Assembly (NCBI GenBank): GCA_029287915.1
Contig: JARFQE010000125.1
Coordinates: 18,114-82,113 of the forward strand
Length of the DNA: 64,000 bases
Direction of reading: 5' to 3'
Source of the DNA: Arenicellales bacterium
GTDB lineage: Bacteria > Pseudomonadota > Gammaproteobacteria > BMS3Bbin11
Numbering within the stretch: position 1 is the stretch's first letter; each line of letters starts with the position of its first letter. Below, piece by piece: positions 10,334-46,043 of this stretch. The position numbers were made by a program, and so were the translations under genes. The notes beneath the pieces were generated by a model. That model searched no databases, was not told where the DNA came from, and saw only the letters and a program-made list of their open reading frames with translations.

Positions 10334-11203
10334 ATGCGATTCACCCGTCTGTTAAAAGTCTGCCTGCTGTTTATCAGTCTAAAACTCTCATTTGCTGCCA
10401 TCGCTGCAGAAGCTGGCAACGACCATGTATTAAAACTCGCCACCACAACAAGCACCGAAAACTCGGGACTGCTGCGTCACCTGTTGCCGGTATTTGAACG
10501 CGATACGGGTTACAAGGTACATGTCATCGCGGTAGGTACCGGCAAGGCACTGCGCATGGGGCGTGACGGCGATGTCGATGTCGTTCTGGTACACGCCCCC
10601 GCGGCTGAACAGAAATTCGTCGATGACGGGCATGGCGTGAAGCGCGTCGGTGTCATGTACAATGACTTTGTTATAGTCGGTCCGGTAGATGACCCGGCAG
10701 CCGCCGGCAACAGCAGCAGCGGCAATGAAGCGCTGAGCAGAATTGCAAAAAAAAAGGCAGTTTTTATCTCAAGGGGTGACGATTCGGGGACCAATAAAAA
10801 AGAACTGTCATTATGGAGAGAGGCCGGCATCAGACCACAGGAACCATGGTATCGAGAAGCCGGACAGGGTATGGGCAAGGTTCTGCAAATGGCAGGAGAA
10901 CTTTCAGCCTATACCCTCACTGACCGTGGGACCTGGCTGGCATTCATGAATAAATCACCATTACGTATTGTTTACCAGGACGACCCAGTGCTGTTCAACC
11001 CCTACGGTATCATCGCGGTCAACCCGGCACGTTATCCGGATATAAACTACACCGGCGCCCAGGCACTGATAAAGTGGATCACTTCACCGGCTGGCCAACT
11101 TTTAATAGGCAACTACACCGTTGCGGATTCGCTGCTATTCACCCCATCAGCCGATACGGGTCACCTGGCCAGTGAATATTCTGCTGCCGGCAAGACTGAA
11201 TAA
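10334..11203 (+). CDS. tupA: Tungstate ABC transporter substrate-binding protein TupA
   Basis: 289 aa, signal peptide, TTTSTENSGLL anion-binding motif characteristic of TupA rather than ModA. Confidence 0.8.
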   Translation: MRFTRLLKVCLLFISLKLSFAAIAAEAGNDHVLKLATTTSTENSGLLRHLLPVFERDTGYKVHVIAVGTGKALRMGRDGDVDVVLVHAPAAEQKFVDDGHGVKRVGVMYNDFVIVGPVDDPAAAGNSSSGNEALSRIAKKKAVFISRGDDSGTNKKELSLWREAGIRPQEPWYREAGQGMGKVLQMAGELSAYTLTDRGTWLAFMNKSPLRIVYQDDPVLFNPYGIIAVNPARYPDINYTGAQALIKWITSPAGQLLIGNYTVADSLLFTPSADTGHLASEYSAAGKTE

Positions 11204-22729: not shown

Positions 22730-23028
22730 GTGTAAAAAAACCTCAAAAATAAAATAAAAAAAATATTACAAATGTTTCCTTGCACAACAGCTTATGGCCG
22801 TTACAGATCTACTGTAAACGTGCATAACAATATTGTAATTCTATTCAATATAGGAAAAATGCATGTGCATTTTATCCAGTATTTCGCTCGAGTATATAAG
22901 AACGAATTATCATATACAACACTAAACTTATGATGGCAATTTCCCGTTTTATTAACTAGATAACAAACTGAAGCTGGATCGCAATGGTAGAATAATCTGA
23001 AAGTTCATAATGCCTTGAAGGAAAAGTA

Positions 23029-33945: not shown

Positions 33946-34142
33946 GATACCGCACCATTGCATATTAGATATTGTTAATATATTAAAATAGCGACAATAG
34001 TTCAGTGACCTTCTCACAAAACCCCGAGCTAAAGAGCAGCCGGCCTTTCTGACTTTATATCTGCAAAATAAAGTCTATAATTTGTATCATTAAGGGTTAA
34101 ATACCCAGTATTAGCAAATAATTAGAAAATAATATGTCATGA

Positions 34143-34151
34143 GGGGGGGGG
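34143..34151 (+). repeat. Homopolymeric G(9) tract between an upstream ATG (34139) and the diguanylate cyclase reading frame
   Basis: Directly read as atga-GGGGGGGGG-agcc. ATG 34139 is +1 relative to the downstream long ORF. Ten Gs would fuse them and add MRGGGAVIDPTVKKNRSISSLVLLSI... (a complete TM1). Confidence 0.9.
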
Positions 34152-34221
34152 AGCCGTTATCGATCCCACTGTTAAAAAAAACCGGTCTATATCTAGCCTG
34201 GTTCTGCTCAGTATCGTACTG

Positions 34222-35835
34222 GTGTCATTATTACCAGTAGGCATAATTGCACCTTTCCTTTACAGAACGGCCTGGGAGCATCAGCGTCAGGAATTGATAG
34301 AGAAGCACCAGCTACTGGCACAGAATCTTGCTGAGCCACTAAAGATGTATGTCAGTAGTCACCATCAGTCATTACAGATTCTGGCCAGCACTATCAATCA
34401 ATTGTCCTATCAGGATTTAGCACAATATCAGAGCTTAGTTGACCAGGCAGTCCATTTTCTTGATGGATTCAATGCCATAGCGCTACTCTCTACTGATGGA
34501 GAACTCAATGCGTTATCTGTTGCTGACAACATCCAAAACGGCTCACATAGACCAGACTATAGCACGCACCCGTGTTTCGAGCGTGTTCTGGAAAACCGGG
34601 CCTCTGACATCTCCAGTGTTCATGCCAGCTTAATTACTGGCGAACCGGCCATTGTCATGAGCCAGGCCATAATAAATTCCAGCGGACAGATTAGCGGAGT
34701 TCTGTTTGCAGAACTTGATTTGAAACCTGTTGAGATAATTCGCAGCAACATTCAGTTTGGCATAAAAGGGCATGCTGCTATTGTTGATAGCGAAGGTCAG
34801 GTGATTGCACACCCAAACCCTGAATGGGTTAAAGAAATACGTGATATTTCAGACTGGCCGATTGTTCAGAAAATGATCAAGGGTGAAACTGGTGTAATGG
34901 AATTTTATTCCAGTTTCATGAAAGCCTCCATGGTTGCGGGATTTGCAGGAATCAACGAACTTGGCTGGGGCATCATGGTTCCTCAACCAATGTCTGAAAT
35001 AGAAGATACCGTTAACGCAATGATATTCAGGGTCGTGATATGGTCACTCTTTGGTATTCTAGTCGCAGTCATTGCCGCGTTCTTTCTGACACGATGGATT
35101 ACTAAACCAATAAACACTCTTGCTTCTAAAGCCAGTAAGCTGGATATTTCTTCATCTAAAGATTCTTTAGGTGTGGTACCTGAACACAGCCCACTGGAGG
35201 TGCGCCAGCTGTGGGATGCACTATCCATGCTGGTAGTTCGCCTCAGAGACTCAAGTAGCGAGATTGTTCAGTTAAACGACTCTCTACAAAAAAAGGTTGA
35301 CCGGGCAACACACGAGTTACGAGAAGCCAATGAGCGCCTGCATAAATTGAGTGTGCGTGACTATTTGACCGAAATTGGCAACCGGCGATATTTTGAAAAT
35401 ACCCTTAATGAAACACTAAACAATTCTTCTGGCGCTGATATCGGTATCATGTTACTGGATATTGATAATTTTAAGCAGATTAATGACAAACATGGTCATG
35501 CAGCCGGTGATTACGTATTAACCCGTGTCGCCGAAGAATTACACAAGTCTACTCGTCCCGGCGACATTATTGCGAGATATGGAGGAGATGAGTTTGTTGC
35601 ACATTTCAATTGTGATGAGAGTACGCTGCTTAACAGGGCTGAACAGCTACGTCAGACCATGGAGAACACAACCTTTACCTGGAACGACGAAAAAATACAT
35701 GTCACACTTTCTATCGGTGTACTCAGTCAAAAATATGATGCCAGCACAAGTATAGATGAATTGATGAGCGCGGCAGACAATGCGATGTATGAATCCAAAC
35801 AATCGGGTAGAAACAAGGTTTCAAAATACCATTAG
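34222..35835 (+). CDS. Sensor diguanylate cyclase (periplasmic Cache-like domain, HAMP, GGDEF)
   Basis: 537 aa as called, from a GTG inside a TM helix. Second TM IWSLFGILVAVIAAFFL, HAMP, coiled-coil, then RYGGDEF with intact A-site. The true start is probably ATG 34139 (see poly-G tract). Confidence 0.85.
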   Translation: MSLLPVGIIAPFLYRTAWEHQRQELIEKHQLLAQNLAEPLKMYVSSHHQSLQILASTINQLSYQDLAQYQSLVDQAVHFLDGFNAIALLSTDGELNALSVADNIQNGSHRPDYSTHPCFERVLENRASDISSVHASLITGEPAIVMSQAIINSSGQISGVLFAELDLKPVEIIRSNIQFGIKGHAAIVDSEGQVIAHPNPEWVKEIRDISDWPIVQKMIKGETGVMEFYSSFMKASMVAGFAGINELGWGIMVPQPMSEIEDTVNAMIFRVVIWSLFGILVAVIAAFFLTRWITKPINTLASKASKLDISSSKDSLGVVPEHSPLEVRQLWDALSMLVVRLRDSSSEIVQLNDSLQKKVDRATHELREANERLHKLSVRDYLTEIGNRRYFENTLNETLNNSSGADIGIMLLDIDNFKQINDKHGHAAGDYVLTRVAEELHKSTRPGDIIARYGGDEFVAHFNCDESTLLNRAEQLRQTMENTTFTWNDEKIHVTLSIGVLSQKYDASTSIDELMSAADNAMYESKQSGRNKVSKYH

Positions 35836-37295: not shown

Positions 37296-38531
37296 ATGAT
37301 GAATCAGGAACAGGCCGTCGATTATCTTAATAATCTGCTAAAAATAATGTTAAGCAAAGAGGCTTCAGATCTTTTTATATCAGAAAATTTCCCGCCATCT
37401 ATTAAGGTCCATGGTGAAATGACAGCGGTGTCTGACCAGCGACTAAGTGCAGTACATACTCGAGCTATTGCCAATGCCGCAATGAATAAAAAACAGCGTG
37501 CAGAGTTCGCAGAAGAATTAGAGTGCAACTTCGCTATACACCCAAAAGGAATTGGACGTTTTCGTGTAAATATATTTCAGCAACAAGGTCATGTTGGCAT
37601 GGTCTTACGTACCATCACAACAGAAATTCCAAATTTCGACAGTCTTCAACTACCGAAAGTTTTGAAGGAAGTAAGTATGGCCAAACGTGGTCTGGTCATT
37701 GTTGTCGGTGGAACAGGTTCAGGTAAGTCAACATCCCTTGCTGCAATGATCGACCATCGCAATGAAAATTCACATGGACACATCATTACCATCGAGGATC
37801 CTGTTGAATACGTTCACAGCAACAAAAACTGCCTGGTAACACAGCGTGAGGTAGGGGTAGACACAAAAAACTGGTTTGCGGCATTAAAAAATACCCTGCG
37901 ACAGGCACCAGATGTCATATTGATTGGTGAAATACGAGACCAGGAAACGATGGAATACGCTATCGCCTTTGCTGAAACAGGTCATCTGTGCATGGCAACA
38001 CTACATGCCAATAGCGCAAACCAGGCAATGGATCGAATCATTAACTTCTTCCCGGAAGAAAAGCGTCAGCAGCTGCTGATGGATTTGTCACTGAATATGA
38101 AATGCATCATGTCTCAGCGCCTGATACCAACGGCCGATCAAAAAGGCCGTTGCGCCGCCATTGAAATTCTCATGAATACACCCATGGTACAGTCGCTTAT
38201 TTTTAAAGGACTGGTTCACGACCTGAAAGAACAAATGCAGAAGGGGGCCAAACACGGGATGCGTACTTTTGATCAAGCACTGTTTGAGCTATATGAGTCA
38301 GGAAAAACAACGATTGAGGACACCTTGCGGAATGCAGATTCTTTAAATGAACTGAAGCTACACATCAAGCTAAATAGCAAACGGAATGATCATGTTGATG
38401 ATGCAAAACCAAAGGCGGAATGGAGTATCCTCGGCGAGGAAAAAACTCAGGACGACGACGGTATAGCAAATTTCATGCGCAAGGAAGAAGATCCGCCTGC
38501 TAGCAGTGGAGATCAGAAAATAGCCAGCTAA
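37296..38531 (+). CDS. PilT/PilU-family type IV pilus retraction ATPase homologue with ~60-aa C-terminal extension
   Basis: 411 aa. Walker A GGTGSGKST, Asp/His boxes, PilT N-terminal domain. There are no other pil genes in the window. Confidence 0.85.
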   Translation: MMNQEQAVDYLNNLLKIMLSKEASDLFISENFPPSIKVHGEMTAVSDQRLSAVHTRAIANAAMNKKQRAEFAEELECNFAIHPKGIGRFRVNIFQQQGHVGMVLRTITTEIPNFDSLQLPKVLKEVSMAKRGLVIVVGGTGSGKSTSLAAMIDHRNENSHGHIITIEDPVEYVHSNKNCLVTQREVGVDTKNWFAALKNTLRQAPDVILIGEIRDQETMEYAIAFAETGHLCMATLHANSANQAMDRIINFFPEEKRQQLLMDLSLNMKCIMSQRLIPTADQKGRCAAIEILMNTPMVQSLIFKGLVHDLKEQMQKGAKHGMRTFDQALFELYESGKTTIEDTLRNADSLNELKLHIKLNSKRNDHVDDAKPKAEWSILGEEKTQDDDGIANFMRKEEDPPASSGDQKIAS

Positions 38532-39842
38532 TTAATAAGATCGGTCATCCATCAGGTCAGTAATCTTTTGCATTATTTCGGGGGTATCCCAGTGTATACC
38601 TCCCTTTACCCCGTAAACTATCGTTCCATCAGGGGCAATGACAAAAGTTGATGGGAATACCACTACATTCCATAGCGCTGAGACCTTGCCATCGGTATCT
38701 AGAAGTACCGGAAAATCAACATCTACTGCCTTCATAAATTCCCGGATATTATCCCGTTGTTCAGCATAATCAATAGATATCAACTCGAATGGTTTACCTT
38801 TCATCTTTTCCAGTAAGCGATTCAACGATGGAATTTCTTCGACACATGGACCACACCAGCTGGCCCAGAAATTAACAAGTGTAACCTTACCCGTGTAATC
38901 AGTATGATTTACCTTCTCACCCTGTACAGTGAAAAGACTCAGTGGTGACGGTACAGGGTTTCCCTTGAACGGTCTCAGCGATGTATCAAGGTTGCCACCC
39001 GGTGCTGATGATATAGCCTCAACAGGCTGTACCTCTATAGGCGTATGCGTATTTACAAGTAGCTGGTTAGCACGAATTATTTCATCAGGCAGCTTTGTTA
39101 ATAAATTAATAGTTTCCGCCGCAGTATCACCAGCATAGAATATACCGGTAACGCCTGGAAATAATTTTGAATAGACCTGTGCACCTCCCTGCTGAAGTTT
39201 ATCTATCACCTTATGTAACTGCCATCGATTACCGCGACTACCACTTTGAAAAAGCACAACAGGGATATTCGTAGCAGATGCAACCGGTGCAAATAAAGGT
39301 TCAAGACCAAGCTCTGGTATCTTTATAAAGAGTTCAGGTGACAGGAGAATTACCCCGTTCAAATAGATGCTTGCTGACCCGCCCGAATTTGTTTGAATCT
39401 GGCTTAATTTATTTTGACCAGCAGCCTGCTGTTGCTGCCATTTACGGATGCCTCGTAGAGTGGGAATAGAAGCATATGCCCGTGTCATAACAGTCACTTG
39501 CTTGCCGCTAAGAGCATGTGCCTGTGTAATCAAACCTGCTACATATCGACCATCCATATTCCGGAAGGTGCTGGCGGCTTTGGGTAAAAAAAGATTTTCA
39601 AGTAGATCAACATGCCAGAACTCAATCCCTAGTGCTGCAACACCTGCTGCAATGCTGTTGATACGCTCTGGCATCTCATAGCCAGTCGATATAAACAGTA
39701 TTAGCTGGTTGCCCGAGGCAGGATGCCGGTCAACGGAGAATTCTTCTCCAAGAATCTCTATAGACAGGACTTCCTTGGCATCTATAGTCAAGGTCACAAG
39801 GCTGAGCAACAGCAACAGACACATCGAAAATCGATGTTTCAT
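38532..39842 (-). CDS. Secreted two-domain protein: unknown ~290-aa N-terminal domain fused to TlpA-like thioredoxin (WCGPC)
   Basis: Start placed at MKHRFSMCLLLLLSLV (signal peptide). C-terminal NFWASWCGPCVEEIP redoxin domain. Confidence 0.7.
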   Translation of the reverse strand: MKHRFSMCLLLLLSLVTLTIDAKEVLSIEILGEEFSVDRHPASGNQLILFISTGYEMPERINSIAAGVAALGIEFWHVDLLENLFLPKAASTFRNMDGRYVAGLITQAHALSGKQVTVMTRAYASIPTLRGIRKWQQQQAAGQNKLSQIQTNSGGSASIYLNGVILLSPELFIKIPELGLEPLFAPVASATNIPVVLFQSGSRGNRWQLHKVIDKLQQGGAQVYSKLFPGVTGIFYAGDTAAETINLLTKLPDEIIRANQLLVNTHTPIEVQPVEAISSAPGGNLDTSLRPFKGNPVPSPLSLFTVQGEKVNHTDYTGKVTLVNFWASWCGPCVEEIPSLNRLLEKMKGKPFELISIDYAEQRDNIREFMKAVDVDFPVLLDTDGKVSALWNVVVFPSTFVIAPDGTIVYGVKGGIHWDTPEIMQKITDLMDDRSY

Positions 39843-39926
39843 CAGCAGCCCCGCTTTATTACGCTCGCAGATATCATTTAAACACAACAGATAAATCACT
39901 AGTCACATAGATAAAATAATGGCACT

Positions 39927-41153
39927 TCAAGTGCTTAGGCGATTTCTACCCTTCTTCTTGGCACGATACAATGCCTTGTCGGCAATCTTGAGCACCTCTT
40001 CTGGTGTATTGCCTGCTCCCTGATTATCAGCAACACCAATACTAATAGTAATTCGCACAGACCTTCTGACAGAAGCTGGTATTTTGTTAACTGCTTTAGG
40101 CTTGTTCCTTGGTCTGTTTTTTCCACGCACTGTAAAACTTGCCTCGGCGATTGTCTGTCGCAGAGTTTCCAGACAGGGTTTTACATCATCGCGATTCTTT
40201 CCAGCGAAAACCAGTGCAAACTCCTCGCCACCATAACGGTAGGCCTTTCCACCTTTACCTGCATTAGCGATATGCCCGGCGACCATTTTCAATACCTGGT
40301 CTCCAACATCATGACCATAGCGGTCATTAATTTTTTTAAATAAATCTATATCAAGCATGGCAATACTATACAAACTACCAAGCTTATTCATAAACTCACG
40401 CAGGGATCGCCTGCCCGCGAGGCCTGTAAGTTCATCGTGATAAGCAAGGATAAAGCTGTTTCGGAGAATAAAAACCAGCACGACCAGCAGTGCACTGGTA
40501 AATATAAACTCTACTCTTGCCATTGCAGGAAAAAAATACAGAGCCAGGCCTGCTCCTGTTAACAAACTGAAAAAACTACTTTCTACTACGCCCGGCCGGT
40601 AAAACAATAATACAATCAATATCGACATGATAAAAAGATAGAATGCTACCGTGATATCCGGGAAAGGCAGCTTCTGGCTGATTTCCTGTGGAAAGATAAT
40701 AAAGCTTAGCCAGTCTAAATTAAGCAATGTTTGCTCCCCTGCCAGGTACAGAGGAATCAGTGGTAATCCGCTACATAGAAGTAAACGGATAATCCCTCGC
40801 ACAGTAAAAATGCCTCTCTCTTTTATAAACAGAAAGAATACAACGGCAATAAGATAGAGCAGAAAAACCAGTTGTATAAACTTAAATTCATCTATCGGAG
40901 TAAAAAATACAGGGGGTTTCACATCTCCCAGTATCAGTGCCAGGAAAATTGCAGTCAGATATAGAACAAAAAACAGCCTTGTCTGATTAAATGACAGACT
41001 AAGCAGCAAAGTGAAAATTAGCACGGGATAGGGAGCATAGTGCCTGACCACTTCCAGGCCATCAGGTACCTCATCAATCCACGGCAACAGGAACAATGCA
41101 ATGGAAAATATACCCAGCGGTATTAACAGCGTTGATAGAAATGCTTTTATCAT
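39927..41153 (-). CDS. Membrane-anchored diguanylate cyclase (multi-TM N-terminal domain + GGDEF)
   Basis: 408 aa, ~7 predicted TM helices then RYGGEEF with an RxxD-like I-site region. Confidence 0.85.
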   Translation of the reverse strand: MIKAFLSTLLIPLGIFSIALFLLPWIDEVPDGLEVVRHYAPYPVLIFTLLLSLSFNQTRLFFVLYLTAIFLALILGDVKPPVFFTPIDEFKFIQLVFLLYLIAVVFFLFIKERGIFTVRGIIRLLLCSGLPLIPLYLAGEQTLLNLDWLSFIIFPQEISQKLPFPDITVAFYLFIMSILIVLLFYRPGVVESSFFSLLTGAGLALYFFPAMARVEFIFTSALLVVLVFILRNSFILAYHDELTGLAGRRSLREFMNKLGSLYSIAMLDIDLFKKINDRYGHDVGDQVLKMVAGHIANAGKGGKAYRYGGEEFALVFAGKNRDDVKPCLETLRQTIAEASFTVRGKNRPRNKPKAVNKIPASVRRSVRITISIGVADNQGAGNTPEEVLKIADKALYRAKKKGRNRLST

Positions 41154-41193
41154 TGATTACAAAATGTAAACAATCAGATGTCTACAGACTGCC

Positions 41194-41616
41194 TTATTCA
41201 GGATATTCTGAAAAGACAGGGAGATTACCTGCCGGGCACGACCATAACGCGCGCGAATCCCAGAAGATGCGATGCTGTGGCAATACGGGTAATTCGCCAT
41301 CCGCTGATCCGGCTGGTACAAGAACTGCATCAAGTTGCGAGATTTCTCTAGGCATCGGGCTACCGCACTTTGAGCAAAAACAGTTATAGAACCTGTTTGC
41401 CTCGGGCACCTTGTAACGAGCTAGCAATGACTCTCCCCCGGTCCAGTTCAAGCTTGATTGGGGAGACACCAGAATATTGCTTGCATGCCCCGTACCTGTT
41501 GCTTTACGACATCGTTGACAATGGCAGTGGGAAAAACGCTTGAGGTCACCCTCTATATCATATTTTACTGAACCGCAGAGGCAACTGCCGCTAAACTTTA
41601 TTTGCGTCATTATCAC
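41194..41616 (-). CDS. GFA-family (glutathione-dependent formaldehyde-activating / CENP-V-like) zinc protein
   Basis: 140 aa, CLCGSVKY...CHCQRCRK and CFCSKCGSPM Zn-binding cysteine pattern. Confidence 0.85.
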   Translation of the reverse strand: MIMTQIKFSGSCLCGSVKYDIEGDLKRFSHCHCQRCRKATGTGHASNILVSPQSSLNWTGGESLLARYKVPEANRFYNCFCSKCGSPMPREISQLDAVLVPAGSADGELPVLPQHRIFWDSRALWSCPAGNLPVFSEYPE

Positions 41617-41919
41617 TACCTTTTTATATGATATTACAACGATATATTCATCTGCTTGTATAACACTCTACTGTTTCTTTTCTAACTGAGCAATCACATC
41701 CTCCAGTCTGCCTTCATCGACCATGGCTCGCAAGGGTGTCATCTGAAGTGCAGAATGCTCGTTTTCCAGCAAGGGAAATAAATCTACAAAACGTACAGCC
41801 CTGTGTGCTATTTCGCTGTCTTGCTGCAGTAATGATTAACGCTTGATGGAATCGAATACCTGCTTACATTTTGGGCAGATTTAATTGCTAATACAGCTCT
41901 GTACATACCCGGCGCCTTA

Positions 41920-42390
41920 TCAGTCCAGTTTGTTTCGGCTATCAGTGACAGCTGTTCTGTCATCACCAGCTATAGGATCATCATGCATTAATAAAGGCTC
42001 ATGGCCGGCTCGCCGGCGTAGCCAGTTTATAGACTTCATTACTGGACCACGATCCACTATCCAGCGCTCCAGCTTATATTTACCAGGAAAGTTCATCATC
42101 ATCATGCCAATAAACATGGTGAATAATCCCTGTCCAGGAAAAAAGATCATGATTACACCTGCGCAAAACAGAATCAGGCCAATTACATTCTTGATTACCA
42201 GCACTACAATGCGTAACAAAGGCGGGTATCTTACAGGTGGCGTCGGGTGACGTTTCTTATACACAAAATAATCAGCCGGGATACGTACAACAATAATCGG
42301 CACTAATATAAGTGAGGCAAAAAAAGTAAACGCTGATGTCGCAACTAACCACCAGATTATCGTTTCATTACTCTGTATTAAATCAATCAT
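41920..42390 (-). CDS. Small membrane protein, PGPGW-like family
   Basis: 156 aa, two TM hairpins, FFPGQGLF motif resembling PGPGW. Weak assignment. Confidence 0.5.
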   Translation of the reverse strand: MIDLIQSNETIIWWLVATSAFTFFASLILVPIIVVRIPADYFVYKKRHPTPPVRYPPLLRIVVLVIKNVIGLILFCAGVIMIFFPGQGLFTMFIGMMMMNFPGKYKLERWIVDRGPVMKSINWLRRRAGHEPLLMHDDPIAGDDRTAVTDSRNKLD

Positions 42391-42762
42391 TCTCTTAATC
42401 GATTTATCTTAATTAAAAATATTTCATCCGCTGAGTGCCAATAATCTTGTCCAGTATTATTTATGCAGAATTTATTATCATACATTGATACAGAATTGAA
42501 ACCAAAGCTATACTGCAGAATCCTTACGATGCATTTTTATAACGCTGTGATAAAAAAATTCGGGATACCTGCCCTGTTTATTTATACAGAGACTGATATT
42601 ACCCGCGATGGGATCAATAAATAGACATTAATATTGTCGGTCATTATGCATGACCAGATATCTTTACTTCACAGGTCAATATCCAGTTGCCGGTGTCTGC
42701 TTAAAATAGAATAAAAAAAACCGTCTGGTAAGCTAAAAACGTGACAGCCATTTTGTTGCCGA

Positions 42763-43149
42763 TCATTTAGTGCCCTGGCCTTCAATGGTCTCAAGGATAG
42801 ACATATATTGCTCAATGGTTTCTTTCTCTGTCTGCTTGTCTGCCACTGATATAAACCGCCTGATTTCTTCCAGTGCTTCATCTGTTTGCTGCAACCGCCA
42901 AAGCGCATTGAAGAGTGCTATGGAATACTGACCTGAGCCCGGTTCGATTGATACCAGGCGTTCGAAAACAACTTTTGCTTCTTTCAGGTTATTGTCAACG
43001 AAATATGCACCACCCAGCATCAGTAATGCAGCAATATTATCCGGTTCTTCTTTTAGAACTGCCAGCAGGCACATCTGCGACTCTTCTTTCTTGCCAGCCT
43101 TTGCCAGAGAGCGAGCATTATTTAGTATTTTCTCAACATCCAGCGACAT
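42763..43149 (-). CDS. Tetratricopeptide-repeat protein
   Basis: 128 aa, about three TPR-like helical pairs (AKAGKKEESQMCLLAVLKEEPDNIAALLMLGGAYF...). Confidence 0.6.
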   Translation of the reverse strand: MSLDVEKILNNARSLAKAGKKEESQMCLLAVLKEEPDNIAALLMLGGAYFVDNNLKEAKVVFERLVSIEPGSGQYSIALFNALWRLQQTDEALEEIRRFISVADKQTEKETIEQYMSILETIEGQGTK

Positions 43150-43187
43150 AATCAGTTATCAATATAATATTTTTGCTATAAAGAAAT

Positions 43188-43871
43188 TTATTTTATTGCA
43201 GAAAGCTCTACTAGTGGATCGAGATAAGGCTCAGCCGAATTTGCTGCATGACCAAAGCATGCCAGATAAGCCTCTTGCTCATCTTTATCAAGTTCAGAAT
43301 AAGACTCAGGGATATCAACATAATCAAGGGAGAAAATGACCTTGTCACCCTGTTCTGTATCAGTACACTGTTCATAGAGAAGCACATTTGATGCATCAAA
43401 CTCCCTGACACTGTGAAGATTATTCCTGTAATAATGAAGGATGATCAGTGCTTCAGACGGGGATGTTCTGCGCGATGGAAGATAAGTCGCCGTGTATTCT
43501 CTTTTAATCCTGTTTTCATCGTCATATATGAACAAATCAATCATATGAAAGTCATTCGAAAACTTTAATTCCCATTTAACAATACTAAGCAGCTGCCTGC
43601 TCTCTCTATCGAAATACTTAACTTCTCGATAATACTCAGGTTCATTGGTAAGCCCACCATAGCCACCAATATTTTCCATTGTATAATAATCACTATTATC
43701 CAGCCTTTTCTTATGTACAGTATATAATTTCTCGGCAAAACTATTCCACAGCTGGTGTCGCATCTCGAGGCCAACAGGTAATGAAGTATCGCCAGCCGCA
43801 AACGTGTTCGTGACTGTCAGTAAAATTATGAGATGCATCACGAATCTGCTGTGATTTCTTTTTTTTGACAT
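43188..43871 (-). CDS. Hypothetical secreted protein (227 aa)
   Basis: Signal peptide (HLIILLTVTNTFAAG), Tyr/Glu-rich; no recognisable family; co-oriented upstream of the TPR gene. Confidence 0.5.
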   Translation of the reverse strand: MSKKRNHSRFVMHLIILLTVTNTFAAGDTSLPVGLEMRHQLWNSFAEKLYTVHKKRLDNSDYYTMENIGGYGGLTNEPEYYREVKYFDRESRQLLSIVKWELKFSNDFHMIDLFIYDDENRIKREYTATYLPSRRTSPSEALIILHYYRNNLHSVREFDASNVLLYEQCTDTEQGDKVIFSLDYVDIPESYSELDKDEQEAYLACFGHAANSAEPYLDPLVELSAIK

Positions 43872-44096
43872 TTATAACCAGCTCATTTATTAGAAAAAAG
43901 CATCTTAACTAATAACCCAAAAGTTATACTGTCGATTGCCGGAATCCAGTAAGATATTTATTAATTTATGGCCTTCTGATCTACGCGATTTTTATCTGTA
44001 ATGATGACAATAAACAGGGTTGTAAGTTAAATAATGGAAAAAATCGACCCAGGCAGGTTAATCACGCCGTCACATATGGTTACGTGATATTTTAAT

Positions 44097-46043
44097 TTAT
44101 GCTGCCAGCAATCTAGAGGGCCTGTCTACCAGGTAACCCTGAACATAATCTATACCAATTGCACCGAGAATTGCCAGCTGAGTTTCGGTTTCCACTCCCT
44201 CTGCGACTGTTTTCATGCCAAACCCATGGGCTATCGTATTAATGGCCTCGAGAATCGACCGATTTGCCGAGTCTTTCTCAATATTCCGAATAAAATGGGC
44301 ATCTATCTTGATTATATCCAGTGGCAAAGTTTTCAGATAACCAAATGATGACAGCCCTGTGCCGAAATCATCAAGAAAGAAATGACAACCGAGCCCATGT
44401 AGTACATTCATGAACTGAATTGCAGATGTAGCATTTCTAATTGCTGCTGTTTCAGTGATCTCGAAACAGAGATGTTCAGGATCAACATCATAAATTTCAA
44501 GCCCTGTAATAATAGAATCCAGCAGTTCGCGATTTCCCAGACTCATGCCAGACAGGTTAATAGAATAACTTCGCCTATCATTATCATGAGCCATGAACTG
44601 GATTGTTTTACGAACGACATAAAGATCGATTTCAGTGATCAGGTTATATCGCTCAGCTGCCGGAATGAAGTGTGCTGCAGGAACAATTTCTCCATTCTCC
44701 TCTTCATAACGAACAAGAATCTCACTGTGTGCAATGCCATTTTTCATCGACCTTATATCCTGACTGAACAGAACAATCCTGTCGTCATTCATCGCGTGAC
44801 GTAAACGTGAAGTCCAGTCCATCCCTTCCCTGCGTAATTTTGTTTCCTCACTTGTCTCCTCAGACACCTGTATGCGATCACCACCTTTTTCTTTGGCAAC
44901 ATCACAAGCGATATAAGCATCGGACCAGATCGATTCGACATTATCCCTGCTAGCTGTGACCGGTACGATGCCAATGCAGGCAGTAATATCATAACTCCTG
45001 TCTAACCATTCAAAACGATTGCTAGTGATACCGTCCAGTATCTGTCGGGCAGTGGATTTCACTTCCTCAATACTCTTATTCATTAGAAGAATTACAAACT
45101 GATCACTACCGACTCGGTCAATAGCAATATCATCGCCAACTGATTCACGCATGTGTGCTGCCAGCTGTCTAAGTAGTTCATCGCCAGCAGTCTGTCCCGA
45201 AGTGTTATTGACGATATTGAACTGGTCAATATCGAGATACAGTAAGGCATGACTTGCATCATTTTGTCTCGCATCATCAATGAGTGCCTGAATCTGTGAT
45301 TCGGCTTCATAGCGATTGCCGAGTCCGGTAAGGGGATCATGGCAGGCCTGCCATAGCAAACGCCTGCTGTGATGGGAATCAATTTGATAGGCAAGCCAGG
45401 CAATACTAAAACCGGTAACAATAGCTATAACAAGCAACCATGCCAGGATCGTCCGGTAACTATCCATGAATTCTAGCGCTACTTGTGTTGAGGAAGTTGA
45501 CGAGTCAACCAGCATTTCCCTCATCATCATCATATCAGGGTAGAGTTGCCTGCGATTTGGCTCCAGCTCAGTAGCAATTAACTCTAGTGCTTTATCCTGC
45601 TGACCTGAAGTAGCCAACTCTATAATTTGCTGCTGCAGAGTATAGCCCTTTCTATTCATTGCAATTATATGGTCGAGGATTTTACGCTCTTCTTCATTTA
45701 AACGCTTTGCCACGAGTTCGTTTCTGGCAGATAAATAATGAGTTGCCAGGGCATAGTGTTTCTGGATAATTTCATCCTGATCAAACGGATCACTGGCAAT
45801 CACCAGGTCGCGTAATAGCACTGAACGCTGCCGCGAGTGGTGGACCATTTCATCAAGCAGGCGAAGCTTTTCAATATTGAGCAGTGATCGCTGTAGAAAC
45901 TCTTTTTCAATCTTATGCAGGCTATAAATGCCCAGTAAGCTAATTAATACTATCAGGATAAGCAGCAGGGCAAATACCCAGGTAACAGGATATTGATACC
46001 AGAGACGCGCTCTGGTTATAGAAGAAATTTGATCTTTATGCAT
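44097..46043 (-). CDS. Membrane sensor with degenerate GGDEF domain and EAL phosphodiesterase domain
   Basis: 648 aa. Two TM helices bracket a ~170-aa periplasmic helical sensor domain. The GGDEF position reads RVGSDQF (degenerate). EAL domain with EITE...DDFGTG...KIDAHF motifs. Confidence 0.85.
   Translation of the reverse strand: MHKDQISSITRARLWYQYPVTWVFALLLILIVLISLLGIYSLHKIEKEFLQRSLLNIEKLRLLDEMVHHSRQRSVLLRDLVIASDPFDQDEIIQKHYALATHYLSARNELVAKRLNEEERKILDHIIAMNRKGYTLQQQIIELATSGQQDKALELIATELEPNRRQLYPDMMMMREMLVDSSTSSTQVALEFMDSYRTILAWLLVIAIVTGFSIAWLAYQIDSHHSRRLLWQACHDPLTGLGNRYEAESQIQALIDDARQNDASHALLYLDIDQFNIVNNTSGQTAGDELLRQLAAHMRESVGDDIAIDRVGSDQFVILLMNKSIEEVKSTARQILDGITSNRFEWLDRSYDITACIGIVPVTASRDNVESIWSDAYIACDVAKEKGGDRIQVSEETSEETKLRREGMDWTSRLRHAMNDDRIVLFSQDIRSMKNGIAHSEILVRYEEENGEIVPAAHFIPAAERYNLITEIDLYVVRKTIQFMAHDNDRRSYSINLSGMSLGNRELLDSIITGLEIYDVDPEHLCFEITETAAIRNATSAIQFMNVLHGLGCHFFLDDFGTGLSSFGYLKTLPLDIIKIDAHFIRNIEKDSANRSILEAINTIAHGFGMKTVAEGVETETQLAILGAIGIDYVQGYLVDRPSRLLAA

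Follow-up and report, generated by a model that had tools for sequence, protein, structure and literature searches.

A length-polymorphic poly-G tract that probably switches a periplasmic-sensing diguanylate cyclase ON and OFF in an uncultured gammaproteobacterium

The stretch analyzed here, referred to below as the window, is 64,000 nucleotides (nt) of contig JARFQE010000125.1 from an uncultured gammaproteobacterium, and our subject is a run of nine G's near the start of one of its genes (34139-35835, + strand, as are all features of the gene given below). This gene is predicted to encode an inner-membrane sensor diguanylate cyclase (DGC) that would synthesize cyclic diguanylate (c-di-GMP) and respond to a ligand. 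Its product is laid out as a basic tail (KKNR), a first transmembrane helix (TM1), a periplasmic double-Cache (dCache) sensor domain, a second transmembrane helix (TM2), a linker, and a GGDEF domain with an I-site. In the protein restored as described below, TM1 (34189-34263) covers residues 18 to 42 and is preceded by the basic tail, with Kyte-Doolittle 19-residue windows above 1.6 at residues 15 to 27, and the string NRSISxLVLLSIVLVSLLPVG of this region is kept across the family. The sensor domain (34279-35022) was matched by Pfam dCache_1 (E = 2.3e-21, residues 48 to 234) and by Cache_3-Cache_2 (E = 2.3e-11, residues 163 to 295). TM2 corresponds to residues 293 to 318 (35014-35091), with a hydropathy peak at window starts 291 to 307, and the DGC domain (35353-35817) matched Pfam GGDEF (PF00990) with an E value of 2.9e-42. 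The GGDEF motif is intact at 35581-35595 (RYGGDEFVAH; context KSTRPGDIIARYGGDEFVAH), an RxxD I-site (RPGD) lies five residues upstream, and the open reading frame (ORF) listing places the TAG stop codon at 35833-35835. Both marks of a sensor DGC are present, namely, an intact GG(D/E)EF motif and an extracytoplasmic Cache domain between two transmembrane helices. TM1 is present only with translation from the ATG at 34139.

At that ATG (34139-34141), direct reading and a scripted count gave an A at 34142, exactly nine G's at 34143-34151, and then AGCCGTT; the letters directly 3' of the tract are AGCCGTTATC. The run extends from the second base of codon 2 (AGG) through codons 3 and 4 into the first base of codon 5 (GAG). 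In this G9 allele, the ATG opens an ORF of 33 codons (34139-34240) that reads MRGGEPLSIPLLKKTGLYLAWFCSVSYWCHYYQ and then stops. The DGC frame is open from 34126, and the first ATG, GTG, or TTG in it is the GTG at 34222-34224, from which the uncorrected product has 537 amino acids (aa). With one G inserted (G10) or two deleted (G7), the ATG instead reads MRGGGAVIDPTVKKNRSISSLVLLSIVLVSLLPVGIIAPFLY and is joined to the DGC frame. An in silico series from G6 to G12 gave the full protein at G7 and G10 only, 11 aa at G8 and G11, and 33 aa at G9. Thus, the arrangement described in the original prediction stood at every point: the nine-G run after ATG-AGG, the arrest of the ATG frame after 33 codons, a DGC ORF that can begin only at a GTG within a hydrophobic helix (residue 29, inside TM1), and a basic stretch plus TM1 once ten G's are supplied. 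The restored sequence is exactly the one claimed; it is 565 aa long and matches P0130 exactly, and other metagenome assemblies already contain P0130 as a called protein. The tract lies in the 5' coding region and has the length (about 7 or more) at which a G or C homopolymer can slip, changes in its repeat number toggle the frame between a full-length and a truncated product, and the lengths of database gene calls track the length of the tract. We regard it as a candidate hypermutable switch element, for which G9 would be the OFF setting and the 33-codon ORF the OFF product.

By composition alone, the length of the tract is unremarkable, in that GGGGGGGG had a mean of 0.9 matches in shuffled sequences and 24 of 100 shuffles had at least two. 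We consider the tract nonrandom because it is the sole G or C run of at least 7 in the 64-kb window (scripted count; no further G run of at least 6 was found there), because it is built from GGG, and because it stands directly after a start codon conserved in the family. Across 44 ORFs, GGG accounts for 9.3% of Gly codons, less than any other, and GGG-GGG is used in 0 of 80 Gly-Gly pairs. The remaining ORFs of the window appear intact on the ORF map, and therefore its assembly is not frameshift-ridden. Other long homopolymers in the window consist of A or T: an A9 at 10747 lies within the intact ORF 10334-11203, A8 runs occur at 22756, 23555, 42713, and 56544, and there is a T8 at 43859.

Comparison with relatives indicates that ATG 34139 is the true start codon, since close orthologues begin at this ATG and distant ones begin at a homologous TTG or ATG followed by AGG. 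The relatives came from a protein search with the restored sequence, and the DNA of 13 distant orthologues came from a metagenome scan. Close orthologues begin with MRGG... or MREKEGG... at the ATG homologous to 34139; P0130 starts here, as do P0001 (99% identity, starting MRGGDVIDPTVKKNRSIS...) and P0002 (92% identity, starting MREKEGGVAINPTVNKNRSIS...). Relatives with 66 to 75% identity mostly have the N terminus MR.S.I......NRSISRL. In the DNA of the 13 distant orthologues, the start is TTG or ATG and then AGG (for example, TTGAGGGTA...), homologous to the ATG-AGG here, and none of the 13 carries a G/C tract.

Some relatives depart from this pattern. The P0020 lineage has a different start, GTG GTT AAA AAC. 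The P0009 cluster (42 members; L085:1435-1503, L101, L103, and L104) is without a canonical start upstream of a conserved KNQSISRL; the first one available is a GTG at the TM1 edge (RL-V-LLSIV), and the codons upstream of that GTG are still conserved at the protein level. In two orthologues with 70 to 74% identity, L083 (1430-1500) and L084 (930-1008), the family start is destroyed by point changes and the remaining gene is intact. L083 reads CTG AGG GTG TAG, and L084 reads TCG AGG GTA where relatives have TTG AGG GTA. Both are short contigs, with a coverage of about 3x for L083 by its contig name, and the changed starts may be real start-loss variants or errors. We dropped the idea that L083 to L085 lack any start and that the whole family is recoded. 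TTG or GTG starts prevail in the family, and the puzzle resolved into one lineage with a GTG at the TM1 edge and two point-mutated contigs.

The internal GTG at 34222 is probably not functional as a start. Initiation there is unlikely to rescue function, because it would leave only about 14 hydrophobic residues, because the codon is not conserved, and because it lies in the stem of a predicted 8-bp hairpin (34216-34240; UACUGGUG...UACCAGUA). The original prediction had allowed for orthologues that start at this GTG. That is not what we found: the homologous codon is GTC in a lineage with 92% identity (lineage C, below), and therefore the GTG is not conserved as a start. The further argument that the GTG has no Shine-Dalgarno (SD) sequence proved weak, as ATG 34139 is also without an SD core and only 10 of 37 window genes have one, which makes SD sequences uninformative on starts in this genome. 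A weak in-frame Ile start (ATC 34159), with TGAGGG as its SD and OFF alleles consequently "low," was also considered and dropped. In further orthologue DNA, TGAGGG proved to be the family start codon (TTG or ATG) plus the AGG Arg codon; weak non-AUG initiation may occur, but nothing supports it.

Tract length was read in the DNA around exact copies of the window's neighboring genes and in several protein-cluster members, drawn from ENA k141_ and NODE_ contigs, JGI, NCBI assemblies, and Logan. Lineage A, the window type (flank GnAGCCGTT, in frame at G7 and G10), is represented by 13 independent near-identical assemblies, including the window, that come from different samples and carry different single-nucleotide polymorphism (SNP) haplotypes. 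Eight of them have G9 (the window, L086, L089, L090, L092, L093, L094, and L155), three have G10 (L087, L088, and L159), and one each has G8 (L091) and G11 (L158), so that G10 is the sole in-frame length among those seen. From gene coordinates, a Logan contig without DNA would also have G8. The samples behind L086 to L094, L155, L158, and L159 are ENA assemblies ERZ1689008, ERZ1688085, ERZ1303544, ERZ1688088, ERZ1689014, ERZ1688198, ERZ1688207, ERZ1687911, and ERZ1688206 and JGI 3300040737, 3300041018, and 3300041021. In lineage B (flank GnAGACGTT, in frame at G7), L001 and L099 have the ON length G7 and L095, L097, and L098 have the OFF length G8. In lineage C (92% aa identity; flank ATGAGGGAGAAAGA-Gn-TAGCC, in frame at G8), L002 is ON at G8 and L096 and L100 are OFF at G9. 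The OFF alleles are thus ON-1 in lineage A but ON+1 in lineages B and C. A comparison of orthologue tract lengths was among the checks proposed with the original prediction, and what it returned is not a uniform nine G's but G8 to G11 in lineage A, G7 and G8 in lineage B, and G8 and G9 in lineage C.

Out-of-frame tracts make up 15 of the 21 sequences examined and, by gene-call length, 22 of the 37 contigs of two protein clusters. The P0001 90% cluster contains proteins of 564 and 565 aa together with others of 537 and 496 aa, and the P0002 cluster contains proteins of 566, 512, and 495 aa. For every call with DNA examined, 537, 512, 496, and 495 aa corresponded to an out-of-frame tract and 564, 565, and 566 aa corresponded to an in-frame tract. 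Two wider scans added nothing to this sample. An exact DNA-pattern scan of metagenome contigs for the tract flanks found no match, in a collection that evidently does not include these samples, since the JGI contigs carry the sequence; a search of genome contigs with the full protein sequence was dominated by generic GGDEF motifs, with the best true relative 43% identical.

The polymorphism among these near-identical strains is localized to the repeat. When ten lineage A sequences were aligned over 7.95 kb, we counted 28 SNP columns, and therefore the sequences are distinct haplotypes; the G tract was the only internal indel, and no other was found in the approximately 79 kb of near-identical lineage A DNA aligned. 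In lineage B, L001 and L095 differ over 5.6 kb by 15 SNPs and one indel, which is the tract. Lineage C has, besides the tract, one intergenic indel (T7 in L002 and T6 in L096 and L100, at about 4000-4030 of L002, between the DGC and a PBP7-like gene), the only other indel in any close comparison. As an internal control, the A8 run 22 nt downstream of the tract (34174-34181) is A8 in all lineage A and B sequences examined.

Taken together, these results make it probable that the tract is a conserved poly-G contingency switch that turns a periplasmic-sensing DGC ON and OFF by slipped-strand mispairing. During replication, the tract would gain or lose single G's by such mispairing. In the ON state (n = 7 or 10 in lineages A and B and 8 in lineage C), translation from ATG 34139 would yield the sensor with its N terminus inside, followed by TM1, the periplasmic dCache domain, TM2, and the GGDEF domain. 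In the OFF state, to which the G9 allele of the window would belong, the ribosome would stop after 11 to 33 codons. An internal start would give a protein without a usable TM1, and the Cache domain therefore could not reach the periplasm. At the population level, the locus should then flip between ON and OFF in a stochastic, heritable, and reversible way and so gate one specific sensory input to the c-di-GMP network; its output would be whether or not one ligand-gated c-di-GMP source is present. Our data establish the anatomy of the locus, the frame arithmetic, the confinement of length polymorphism to this site in several lineages, and purifying selection on the ORF, whereas slippage as the mechanism, reversibility, a high switching rate, inactivity of the OFF alleles, and any adaptive role in bet hedging are inferred.

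The most serious rival to this interpretation is nonadaptive, and we consider it unlikely. It holds that the tract is a mutational hot spot without a switching function, whose OFF alleles are neutral or mildly deleterious and continually made and purged, or are pre-pseudogenes. Length variation alone is indeed no proof of adaptive value. L083 (CTG plus TAG) and L084 (TCG) show that the 5' end is also lost through ordinary mutation, and there are other GGDEF genes nearby, so redundancy could tolerate a loss. However, downstream of the tract all alleles keep an open frame of 556 to 557 codons, and we found no second frameshift or stop in any of them. Pairwise ratios of nonsynonymous to synonymous substitution (dN/dS) are 0.06 to 0.13, with dS as high as 0.47 (lineage A versus lineage C); across that distance the tract has persisted with the ORF intact and a dN/dS of about 0.08. 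These values indicate purifying selection on an ORF that is mostly OFF. In each of the three lineages, OFF alleles outnumber ON alleles, and still no OFF allele has acquired a second lesion. Moreover, the codons of the tract are strongly avoided, and drift should have broken it by synonymous changes. Given this OFF majority, the lack of secondary lesions, and the long life of a tract made of disfavored codons, a reversible contingency switch fits better than decay.

The first alternative offered by the original prediction, a homopolymer sequencing or assembly error, fared worse than its second, a slipped-strand phase switch, because in-frame and out-of-frame alleles are polymorphic in each lineage. 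Under this explanation, the genome would always be in frame and G9 and the other odd lengths would come from technical miscounting of its G's. Several sequencing platforms do make errors in poly-G, our comparison rests on assembled sequence, and the compared 8 kb contains no other long G/C run as a like-for-like control. Nevertheless, a wrong consensus would need most reads to be wrong, and the out-of-frame lengths are not stray values but the majority (15 of 21), recurring in three lineages and in several data sources and contig naming styles. In the 10 x 7.95 kb compared, there is no other internal indel, A8, A7, and T7 runs never vary, and the other ORFs of the window are intact. We therefore find such an error very improbable.

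Least credible of all is programmed recoding, in which G9 would be functional, the full-length protein would arise through -1 ribosomal frameshifting or RNA polymerase slippage, and the DNA length changes would be incidental: G GGG GGG has the form of a slippery heptamer, shifting by -1 on G9 gives exactly the G10 protein, and G9 is the commonest lineage A allele, but every lineage has in-frame alleles, tract length is not fixed but varies from 7 to 11, the shift needed is opposite in sign between lineage A and lineages B and C, no stimulatory structure lies 5 to 9 nt downstream (the nearest predicted hairpin begins about 29 nt away), the 5' region as a whole shows no better folding than shuffled sequence, and distant orthologues are without any tract.

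Several points weigh against a phase-variable DGC as such. The differences are seen only between assembly consensuses, whereas the hallmark of phase variation is heterogeneity within one population, and the invariant controls are A/T runs, with no G/C homopolymer of comparable length nearby. Several samples have neighboring accession numbers and perhaps come from one study or site, so that the assemblies are independent and the populations are not necessarily so. The minimum number of length-change events within lineage A is small, about 3. OFF alleles might leak, possibly at a low level, if ribosomes or RNA polymerase slip on the G run.

A bolder form of the slipped-strand switch seems to us about evenly balanced between acceptance and doubt. 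In this form, the tract would be a conserved and selected bet-hedging device in free-living, sediment-type gammaproteobacteria, toggling one chemosensory c-di-GMP input, and would be the first simple sequence repeat (SSR) switch of a DGC from natural populations. The switch may also be graded, with full expression from G10, low expression from G9 via -1 ribosomal or RNA polymerase slippage, and none from G8 or G11.

Upstream of the gene, a consensus scan found a promoter-like TTTATA-16 nt-TATAAT (34054-34081, 10 of 12 matches) about 58 nt before the start. Its function is putative; the block is largely invariant between the window lineage and the 92%-identical lineage C (L002). Direct reading also revealed a mini-ORF, ATG TCA TGA (34134-34142), whose stop overlaps the true start (ATGTCATGA). 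The string ATGTCATGAGG is kept in lineages A, B, and C, all three of which have the tract, and not in distant orthologues. The overlap could reflect termination-reinitiation coupling or coincidence. With respect to RNA structure, the segment 34152-34250 folds better than shuffled sequences (z = -2.5), a value of uncertain significance within conserved coding sequence, and folding of the 5' region as a whole (34088-34230) is on a par with that of shuffled sequences (z = 0.30). Scanning the window for Rfam families and tRNAs gave no match, and no riboswitch was found upstream of the DGC gene.

Genes for c-di-GMP turnover and pili are dense around the tract, at 37296-46043. They include pilU (37296-38531), a 408-aa GGDEF protein (39927-41153, - strand), and a 648-aa GGDEF-EAL protein (44097-46043, - strand). 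Within this region, SNPs at 39842, 39893, and 39899 shift the called start of a thioredoxin/AhpC-like gene (38532-39899, minus strand), which is called at 455, 451, 436, and 430 aa in different near-identical contigs with no indel involved. Among named sequences, none exceeds 63% identity to the SbcB protein of the host. The nearest named relatives of the DGC are from Arenicellales and from marine-sediment or hydrothermal metagenome-assembled genomes, the habitats being taken from the contig titles of these relatives; a literature search for the sample accessions gave no hit.

Most descriptions of phase variation concern surface structures of host-adapted pathogens. Poly-G and poly-C translational contingency loci are found in Neisseria, Haemophilus, and Campylobacter and include pilC, the lgt genes, and the G8 to G13 tracts of Campylobacter jejuni. 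As in those loci, the G tract described here is about 7 to 11 nt long and lies in the first codons, a change of one repeat shifts the frame, ON and OFF alleles occur among close strains, and the tract sits where the protein tolerates a change in length. In contrast to them, the target is an enzyme of cytoplasmic signaling, a sensor DGC, and not a surface structure or a restriction-modification enzyme, and the host is an uncultured environmental gammaproteobacterium, with relatives in marine-sediment and hydrothermal metagenomes, and not a host-adapted pathogen. Loci of this type are reviewed in PMC11868660.

Conceptually close is bvgS of Bordetella pertussis, for which frameshift phase variation at a C tract is attributed to Stibitz et al. 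(1989) in PMC8115180. There, too, a homopolymer frameshift switches a membrane sensor or signal transduction protein on and off, rewiring a regulon rather than a single surface antigen. BvgS, however, is a histidine kinase with a tract internal to the gene, while the tract here lies in codons 3 to 5 of a GGDEF enzyme. Stochastic ON/OFF control of a c-di-GMP turnover enzyme is also found for phosphodiesterases, namely, Clostridioides difficile pdcB and pdcC with their invertible promoters and the Escherichia coli sfa-linked phosphodiesterase (PMC9286219; PMC11868660). Those systems rely on site-specific inversion or on transcription under Dam-type epigenetic control, and their targets are degrading enzymes, whereas the present one would use a coding-region repeat and act on a synthesizing, ligand-sensing enzyme. 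In mutS mutation accumulation lines of Vibrio, homopolymers in DGC genes were hot spots (9C in vc274080_01721 and 9T in VF_1200) and were proposed to be contingency loci (PMC5854121). Our tract resembles them as a 9-nt mononucleotide run within a DGC gene; it differs in that those came from laboratory mismatch repair mutants, while here natural populations of several lineages have ON and OFF states and a conserved tract. A 2025 review counts the connection of phase variation to c-di-GMP among recent insights, and its examples are limited to phosphodiesterases under inverton or epigenetic control (PMC11868660, PMC9286219). In the literature searched, we did not find any repeat-based ON/OFF switch of a DGC documented in natural populations; that literature is incomplete, and the absence is therefore not proven.

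Automatic annotation has split what is one gene into "full" proteins of 564, 565, and 566 aa and "truncated" proteins of 537, 512, 496, and 495 aa; which of these is recorded depends on the length of the tract and on the gene caller. A 90% protein cluster whose members differ in length, together with a homopolymer at the 5' end, could serve as a cheap screen of metagenomes for contingency loci. In the present case, the probable repeat-based switch on a ligand-sensing cyclase is visible in public metagenome assemblies as G7 to G11 alleles in three lineages. The finding suggests that individual sensory inputs to second-messenger networks may be under stochastic ON/OFF control outside pathogens as well.

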